Under the pieces are notes generated by a model. It did no database searches, had not been told where the DNA came from, and worked only from the letters and a program-made list of their open reading frames with translations. 9,734 nucleotides of DNA from a virus (lineage: Duplodnaviria; Heunggongvirae; Uroviricota; Caudoviricetes): positions 1 to 9,734 of the IMG/VR virus record IMGVR_UViG_2681813004_000016; one strand, given 5' to 3'. This document shows, one piece after another, positions 7,221 to 7,594 of the stretch. Made by a program: the position numbers and the translations under genes. How positions within the stretch are numbered: position 1 is the first letter of the stretch; each line of letters begins with the position of its first letter.

Positions 7221-7594
7221 GAACACACCTCCATCTTGATAGCCACAGCTAAGTATCCAACTATGTCAAATGTCATTTAATACTATAACAAAGCTATCAG
7301 CAATCCTTCGGAGGCTAACTTACAACCACTTTAGCGACATGTTTAAACCATTACGTTTCACATTTACTGCATTTTCGCCGAAGTTACCTATAAGGTAATG
7401 TCACATTTCCTGCAAGTTTCATGCAATGTTGAAAAGTGAGCTATTCACTTTTCTATGACACCAAACACCAAAAATAGCACTTTTTGCTAAATCATTCGTC
7501 CAAGTTGTGGATGGTTTGTCGTTGACACGTTTTCACACACCACTCCACCAATACATTATCATCTGGTATCCTGCGCAAAACTAAGGAGGTTGGT

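Follow-up and report, generated by a model that had tools for sequence, protein, structure and literature searches.

Deletions between short direct repeats proceed by short-homology recombination that is largely independent of RecA, and were classically described for the lacI gene of Escherichia coli. The locus described here resembles them in that the direct repeats are identical, one copy is kept and the intervening DNA is lost, and in that there is neither similarity outside the repeat nor a reciprocal product. It is unlike the classical cases in being known as natural alleles among genomes and not as measured events, and its enzymology (slippage, annealing or a prophage recombinase) is putative.

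One of the two repeat copies lies in the sieA/hkcB gene slot of the P22-like phages (P22, HK620 and epsilon34), a region whose variability was already known (PMC2629481). In P22, a construct with 85 bp upstream of sieA, including a ‘putative PsieA’, sufficed for exclusion (PMC10461980). The site described here is similar in lying next to the leader of this slot (TGGTATCCT...AAGGAGGTTGGTGTG) and in the corresponding 85 bp, although the repeat itself is outside the conserved leader. The other copy is upstream of a non-LEE effector gene, as is the nle regulatory inverted repeat (NRIR) of attaching and effacing E. coli, a 13-bp element that precedes some of the nle genes (Garcia-Angulo et al. 2012, as summarised in the review PMC7142665). 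Unlike the NRIR, which that summary describes as an inverted repeat, the element studied here and its surroundings contain none. It is also known that temperate phages acquire DNA of defective prophages through relaxed homologous recombination, the stf/tfa regions being a notable case (PMC3945230). A comparable block of remnant DNA is found here inside a myovirus-like prophage, and stf/tfa are typical exchange zones; the difference is that in the present case we infer the direction of transfer.

Prophage remnants beside dacD and a 14-base repeat

The window, i.e. the whole 9,734-nt stretch of DNA that was analysed, begins in the E. coli chromosome (yeeA, sbmC, dacD) and continues into an array of prophage remnants. 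Any single complete genome in the collection covers at most 66% of it. The P22-like part is the ‘ant moron’ end of a prophage, with a tailspike fragment, ant, arc/mnt-like genes, a Panacea antitoxin gene, an hkcB-like gene and a fragment of gene 16. Between the arc-like and mnt-like genes there is a perfect 18-bp direct repeat (4445–4462 and 4472–4489, 27 bp apart), which is operator-like. The P22-like remnant is interrupted by fragments of lambda-like minor tail genes L and M (4846–5873, minus strand) and by a fragment of an IS DDE-transposase gene (6195–6779, minus strand), with homology to the closest relative, L001, resuming at 6812.

The SocA/Panacea-domain antitoxin gene (6801–7226, minus strand) was identified by Pfam (E = 1.7e-24) and by annotation, and its module owns the left flank of the first repeat copy. 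The 3′ end of this gene has been replaced in the window, and the toxin candidate found downstream of it in L001 is missing here. The hkcB-like gene (7595–7924, plus strand) encodes a 109 amino acid protein that has no match in Pfam and whose translation points to a hydrophobic segment at the N-terminus and to a coiled coil. It is followed by the 3′ fragment of the P22-like gene 16, which encodes a DNA transfer protein (7925–8278, minus strand; assigned from the annotation of L001 and a match to HK620).

The lambdoid cargo end extends from approximately 8271 onwards and comprises nleG and a tail-fibre C-terminal gene; at about 8271–8278 the 5′-truncated gene 16 joins lambdoid sequence that lies downstream of nleG. 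The nleG-family gene encodes a type III secretion effector (8386–9033, minus strand; Pfam T3SS_NleG, E = 5.8e-38, and annotation). Intact lambdoid relatives carry a transposase fragment and nleA after nleG; the window lacks both. The tail-fibre C-terminal (tfa-like) gene (9243–9512, minus strand; Pfam Phage_fiber_C, E = 1.8e-34, and annotation) has a hairpin terminator at its 3′ side (9201–9231), where the multi-copy sequence conserved in lambdoid prophages starts. Beyond the tail-fibre C-terminal gene, L001 continues with the tail fibre, lom and J.

The sequence GTTTTCACACACCA occurs exactly at two positions in the window, 7529–7542 (copy 1, site 1) and 9103–9116 (copy 2, site 2), in each case on the plus strand. 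The first-pass annotation had placed this 14-mer upstream of both the coiled-coil (hkcB-like) gene and nleG, and on the strand opposite to nleG at site 2, and both statements are correct. Copy 1 lies between the divergent Panacea antitoxin and hkcB-like genes of the P22-like remnant and copy 2 in the allele-specific nleG upstream region of the lambdoid prophage. By their sequence contexts, the two copies are assigned to the DNA of two different phage lineages.

The same annotation had extended the match to flanking strings, TTGNCAC on the left and ATTATCA on the right. These strings are present at both sites, but their spacings differ: TTGACAC abuts copy 1 (spacing 0 nt) whereas TTGTCAC is separated from copy 2 by 3 nt, and ATTATCA begins 12 nt after copy 1 whereas it overlaps the final A of copy 2. 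Nor are the strings conserved in homologues, and local alignment of the left flanks (30 nt, P = 0.75) and of the right flanks (45 nt, P = 0.31) gives matches that are no better than chance. The sites have 14 identical bases in common and nothing beyond. For these 14 bases, the chance expectation of 0.10 is valid only for a pattern fixed beforehand; when the question is asked post hoc, some exact direct 14-mer repeat is found in 21% of simulated windows (first-order Markov), and an exact 14-mer between just the two intergenic regions has P = 0.014. The 14-mer has no dyad symmetry and there is no inverted repeat of at least 5 bp in 7510–7575 or in 9080–9135. In an Rfam scan of the whole window there was no match at either site of the 14-mer; a sub-threshold match to the sar antisense RNA was seen at 4175–4241, next to ant (28.5 bits, compared with a gathering score of 43).

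Upstream regions of the hkcB-like gene and nleG

Copy 1 comprises the final 14 nt of the Panacea-side module, and homology to the L005-type prophage starts directly after it. It lies within 85 bp upstream of the start of the hkcB-like gene, and the equivalent region of P22 has an annotated sieA promoter. The 14-mer is intact in all 33 site-1-type contexts; the whole left flank is, however, nearly invariant as well, and therefore the invariance of the 14-mer at this site is uninformative as to constraint. To its right, ATTATCA is replaced by AAGTATCA or CAGTATCA in 32 homologues of site 1 from IMG/VR. A sigma-70-like match, TTCACA-16-CATTAT (7532–7559, plus strand; 9/12), has its −35 hexamer inside the 14-mer, and CATTAT reads AAGTAT or CAGTAT in most site 1 homologues. 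The TTCACA of copy 1 may thus provide a weak −35 hexamer for the hkcB-like gene. The best match to the sigma-70 consensus in the region is TTGAGA-17-TAGAAT (7710–7682, minus strand; 10/12), which is inside the hkcB-like gene, antisense to it and directed toward the Panacea gene.

A comparison of loci L002, L003, L005 and L007–L140 indicates that the element truly common to different cargo genes is not the 14-mer but the leader at 7564–7597 (plus strand), which consists of an extended −10-like motif, a Shine-Dalgarno sequence (AAGGAGG) and the GTG start. This leader is conserved with the regions upstream of P22 sieA, HK620 hkcB and genes of other E. coli prophages. The conserved stretch, which runs from 7553 or 7564 to the start codon, reads TGGTATCCTGCnCAAAACTAAGGAGGTTGGTGTG and contains the extended −10-like TGnTATCCT. 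In the loci fetched, the leader is found 5′ of at least nine unrelated small proteins, most of them membrane or secreted: SieA (164 amino acids), HkcB (109), a 129 amino acid protein with a signal peptide, and proteins of 62, 68, 75, 103, 116 and 140 amino acids. This number of cargo proteins behind a single leader fits the known variability of the region (PMC2629481). The 14-mer is absent from the regions upstream of sieA/hkcB in P22, HK620, L005 and L006, and nleG does not have the leader. What is actually conserved as an expression signal of the P22-like sieA/hkcB slot lies just downstream of the coordinates that were first noted.

At site 2, the region 9034–9242 is present in full in 150 E. 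coli genomes, in lambdoid prophages with the gene order tail fibre, tfa, nleG, (transposase fragment), nleA, and these site-2-type prophages carry no P22 sequence. Rightward of approximately 9158–9170 follows the multi-copy tfa terminator region, which many lambdoid prophages share; leftward, the sequence is private to this nleG allele. The 14-mer is exact in the alleles of the chicken strains. In the common O103-type (EHEC) allele, that of strain RM8385, site 2 reads TTATCACAATGCTTTCACACACCA and lacks TTGNCAC, and the position of the 14-mer is occupied by GCTTTCACACACCA (12/14 identical).

The nleG upstream region contains further short repeats. A perfect 15-bp direct repeat, TTAACTTCATTAACA, is found at 9047–9061, 14 bp upstream of the nleG start, and at 9165–9179, at the boundary with the conserved tfa-terminator region. 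Other effector cassettes, those of an O157 nleG and an O145 nleH, also meet the conserved region at ...TTAACAAACATC, and this shared point is suggestive of a cassette boundary. CCATTATCA occurs twice, at 9114–9122 and 9143–9151, 29 bp apart, and reads TGATAATGG on the nleG strand.

A second sigma-70-like match, TTGTCA-16-CATTAT (9093–9120, plus strand; 9/12), overlaps copy 2, with a spacer formed largely by the 14-mer, which also begins the −10 hexamer. It is directed away from nleG, toward the tfa terminator, and is followed by no plus-strand ORF of 50 amino acids or more. If it were an orphan promoter, it would give rise to a short antisense or small RNA of approximately 105 nt, which would start near 9127 and end at the bidirectional tfa terminator (9201–9231). 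The downstream sequence has some of the expected features, namely a hairpin followed by a T-run on the plus strand (T6 in the O103 allele) and a fold of 9127–9236 that is better than those of shuffled sequences (z = −3.3). We nevertheless regard an orphan promoter as very unlikely: the terminator hairpin accounts for almost all of the folding signal, Rfam gives no match, the 9/12 score is at shuffle expectation and the −35 hexamer is weaker (TTATCA) in the O103 allele. Even if such a promoter were real, the 14-mer common to site 1 would stay unexplained. In the nleG sense (minus strand) there is no consensus promoter match in 9034–9242, and from its sequence copy 2 is without an assignable regulatory role.

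The first-pass annotation had raised the possibility that the 14-mer and its flanks are a promoter or operator common to the hkcB-like gene and nleG, which would imply their co-regulation. In favour of this proposal, both copies are intergenic, 53–83 bp from a start codon, both overlap plus-strand sigma-70-like matches and site 1 is in the region equivalent to the putative PsieA of P22. The proposal fails, however, on orientation, architecture, symmetry, conservation and recurrence, and we consider it highly improbable. The plus-strand copies are in the sense orientation for the hkcB-like gene (plus strand, start at 7595) but not for nleG, which is on the minus strand to the left of site 2, so that copy 2 is inverted relative to it. 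The 14-mer provides the −35 hexamer of one predicted promoter and the spacer of the other; the −35/−10 register relative to the 14-mer therefore differs between the sites, unlike that of a shared sigma-70 promoter, and the number of sigma-70-like sites in the region (7) is that of shuffled sequences (6.3 ± 2.3). The sites do not have the form of operator half-sites either, given the unequal spacing between TTGNCAC and the 14-mer, the chance-level flanks and the lack of a dyad. A reading of the TCACA and GATAAT strings, by eye, as PhoB, CRP or Fur-like sites was rejected on similar grounds, the spacing being unequal between the two sites and symmetry absent.

Conservation and recurrence argue against co-regulation in the same way. 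The 14-mer is not conserved in the O103 allele, is missing from the upstream regions of P22, HK620, L005 and L006 that drive the same slot, and is not found upstream of other genes in searches of IMG/VR and of species-representative genomes. The genome-wide search that had been suggested as a check revealed no recurrence as a motif: the 14-mer with TTGNCAC had one match, attributable to chance (a Chloroflexi MAG), among 185,579 species-representative genomes (GTDB). In IMG/VR the bare 14-mer is found in site-1-type P22-like contigs and in one hybrid, while most of the other matches listed are in unrelated contexts, and the exact pattern of the site 2 left flank plus the 14-mer has no match in that database. 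Literature searches with the 14-mer, its reverse complement and the 15-bp repeat upstream of nleG returned only unrelated primer matches. For short exact intergenic matches in mosaic prophages, the flanks, orientation and conservation should be checked before the match is called regulatory.

A probable 1574-bp deletion across the repeat

A BLAST match that ended exactly at the end of copy 1 pointed to strains with a hybrid junction, which consists of the left flank of copy 1, a single 14-mer and the right flank of copy 2. This junction was read directly in two loci, L004 and L128. The latter, the dacD locus of strain Z1323CEC0001, aligns to window positions 6812–7542 and 9103–9732, with an overlap of 14 nt. 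The segment absent from the deletion alleles is 1574 bp long (7543–9116) and contains the hkcB-like gene, the gene 16 fragment, nleG with its upstream region and one copy of the repeat.

Of 5426 complete genomes, 6 carry the hybrid junction; they belong to a single series of chicken isolates from Korea, and their junction is invariant (100% identity over a 128-nt junction query). In three sibling strains, Z1323CEC0001, Z1323CEC0009 and Z1323CEC0016, the deletion allele is at the yeeA-sbmC-dacD locus, the same as that of the window, and the junction separates Panacea from tfa, tail fibre, lom and J. Three of the 5426 genomes (Z1323CEC0010, Z1323CEC0017 and Z1323CEC0018) have both sites in the full arrangement, and none has the reciprocal junction. 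The site-1-type context is carried by 79 E. coli genomes as well as by P22-like phages, where it runs on into an intact gene 16. The locus thus has the features of a deletion substrate, i.e. identical direct repeats, dissimilar flanks and an allele at the same locus that keeps one copy.

The right flank of the deletion allele is 95–97% identical to that of the full allele, and therefore the two are not immediate parent and offspring. The difference of 3–5% on the tfa side is expected, because this multi-copy region is known to recombine (PMC3945230). The full form retains the native P22-like order of Panacea, hkcB and gene 16, and both parental junctions occur often and in diverse forms, the hybrid seldom and with an unvarying junction; on these grounds parsimony favours the direction from full to deleted. 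Rearrangements next to dacD would have set two prophage fragments 1574 bp apart in the same orientation, which generated a 14-bp direct repeat. Recombination across this repeat would then have removed nleG together with the hkcB-like gene and the fragment of gene 16, leaving as its product the hybrid junction with one 14-mer. The mechanism is presumably short-homology recombination, by replication slippage or single-strand annealing, possibly with the participation of prophage recombinases.

The first-pass annotation had offered as its alternative that both copies derive from one recombination-prone sequence. Part of this holds, since a deletion probably crossed the 14-bp direct repeat, whereas descent of the copies from one sequence is not demonstrable. 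In our view the identity of the 14-mers is probably a coincidence between unrelated intergenic sequences of two phage lineages, which later served as the end point of a deletion. The 14 bases may also share a common ancestry, given the P value of 0.014 within the two intergenic regions. Gene conversion from site 1 to site 2, as a source of the two SNPs that distinguish 14 from 12 matching positions, was rejected, as the exact 14-base allele also occurs elsewhere in lambdoid prophages without site 1 and no simple conversion tract fits.

In two genomic contexts the junction lies precisely at the 14-mer. Copy 1, for its part, ends on the right at a mosaic boundary of the P22-like phages, a hint that this spot may be recombinogenic. 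These observations would be compatible with a dedicated recombination site, either an att-like core or a conserved module-boundary linker for cassette exchange, but such a site is most improbable. The reciprocal junction is lacking, there is no recombinase or integrase gene in or beside 7543–9116, and inverted repeats are absent. Further mosaic boundaries in the region are at 7553 and 7564, the boundary of the site 2 module is at approximately 9158–9170 and not at the 14-mer, and the parental contexts run into intact phage genomes without delimiting a discrete element. An integrated element bounded by 14-bp att repeats was rejected on two of these points, the continuation of the parental contexts into whole phage genomes and the lack of the reciprocal junction in the 5426 genomes. 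A linker under selection, used by recombinases for cargo swaps among P22-like, lambdoid and myovirus-like phages, would explain both the P22-like mosaic boundary at the right end of the 14-mer and the movement of the Panacea toxin-antitoxin module with a tail-fibre fragment into another prophage; we give it very little credence.

It is similarly hard to credit that the hybrid (Panacea module, 14-mer, tfa module) is the ancestral contiguous sequence, from which site 1 and site 2 were each derived by a separate recombination, one to either side of the 14-mer. Such identity by descent would account for an exact match without flank similarity, and the hybrid block is present in a phage-like context as well. 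Against it, the hybrid is rare, with 6 genomes from a single strain series and one contig, and its junction is invariant, whereas contexts of the site 1 and site 2 types are widespread and varied. Where site 1 is accompanied by hkcB and gene 16, moreover, the order of the genes is the native P22-like one, and the model requires a pair of breakpoints separated by 14 bp in place of one deletion.

Deletion between coincidentally identical bases, the preferred reading, makes the event ordinary prophage decay, a further instance of a well-known kind. Its general significance is small, but it provides a clean natural case of the loss of a prophage-borne nleG via a 14-bp repeat from colliding remnants, and it also illustrates the apparent passage of the resulting hybrid block to another prophage.

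The hybrid block in a myovirus-like prophage

In Z1323CEC0005 a hybrid block of 1.8 kb is located inside a myovirus-like prophage near torT, and the same type of prophage is present in Z1323CEC0006. The block contains the toxin candidate, the Panacea antitoxin gene, the 14-mer, tfa and a tail-fibre fragment, and looks like a transfer from the defective prophage. It is inserted between an SLT-domain tail gene and the baseplate genes (L126, 30062–32390, NZ_CP148474.1; L133; L132; L110). The hybrid block is also found in one IMG/VR contig and in a 4.1-kb record of Z1323CEC0013. The genes of this 4122-bp ‘plasmid’ record are those of the block, and it possibly represents an assembly fragment of the myovirus-like prophage.
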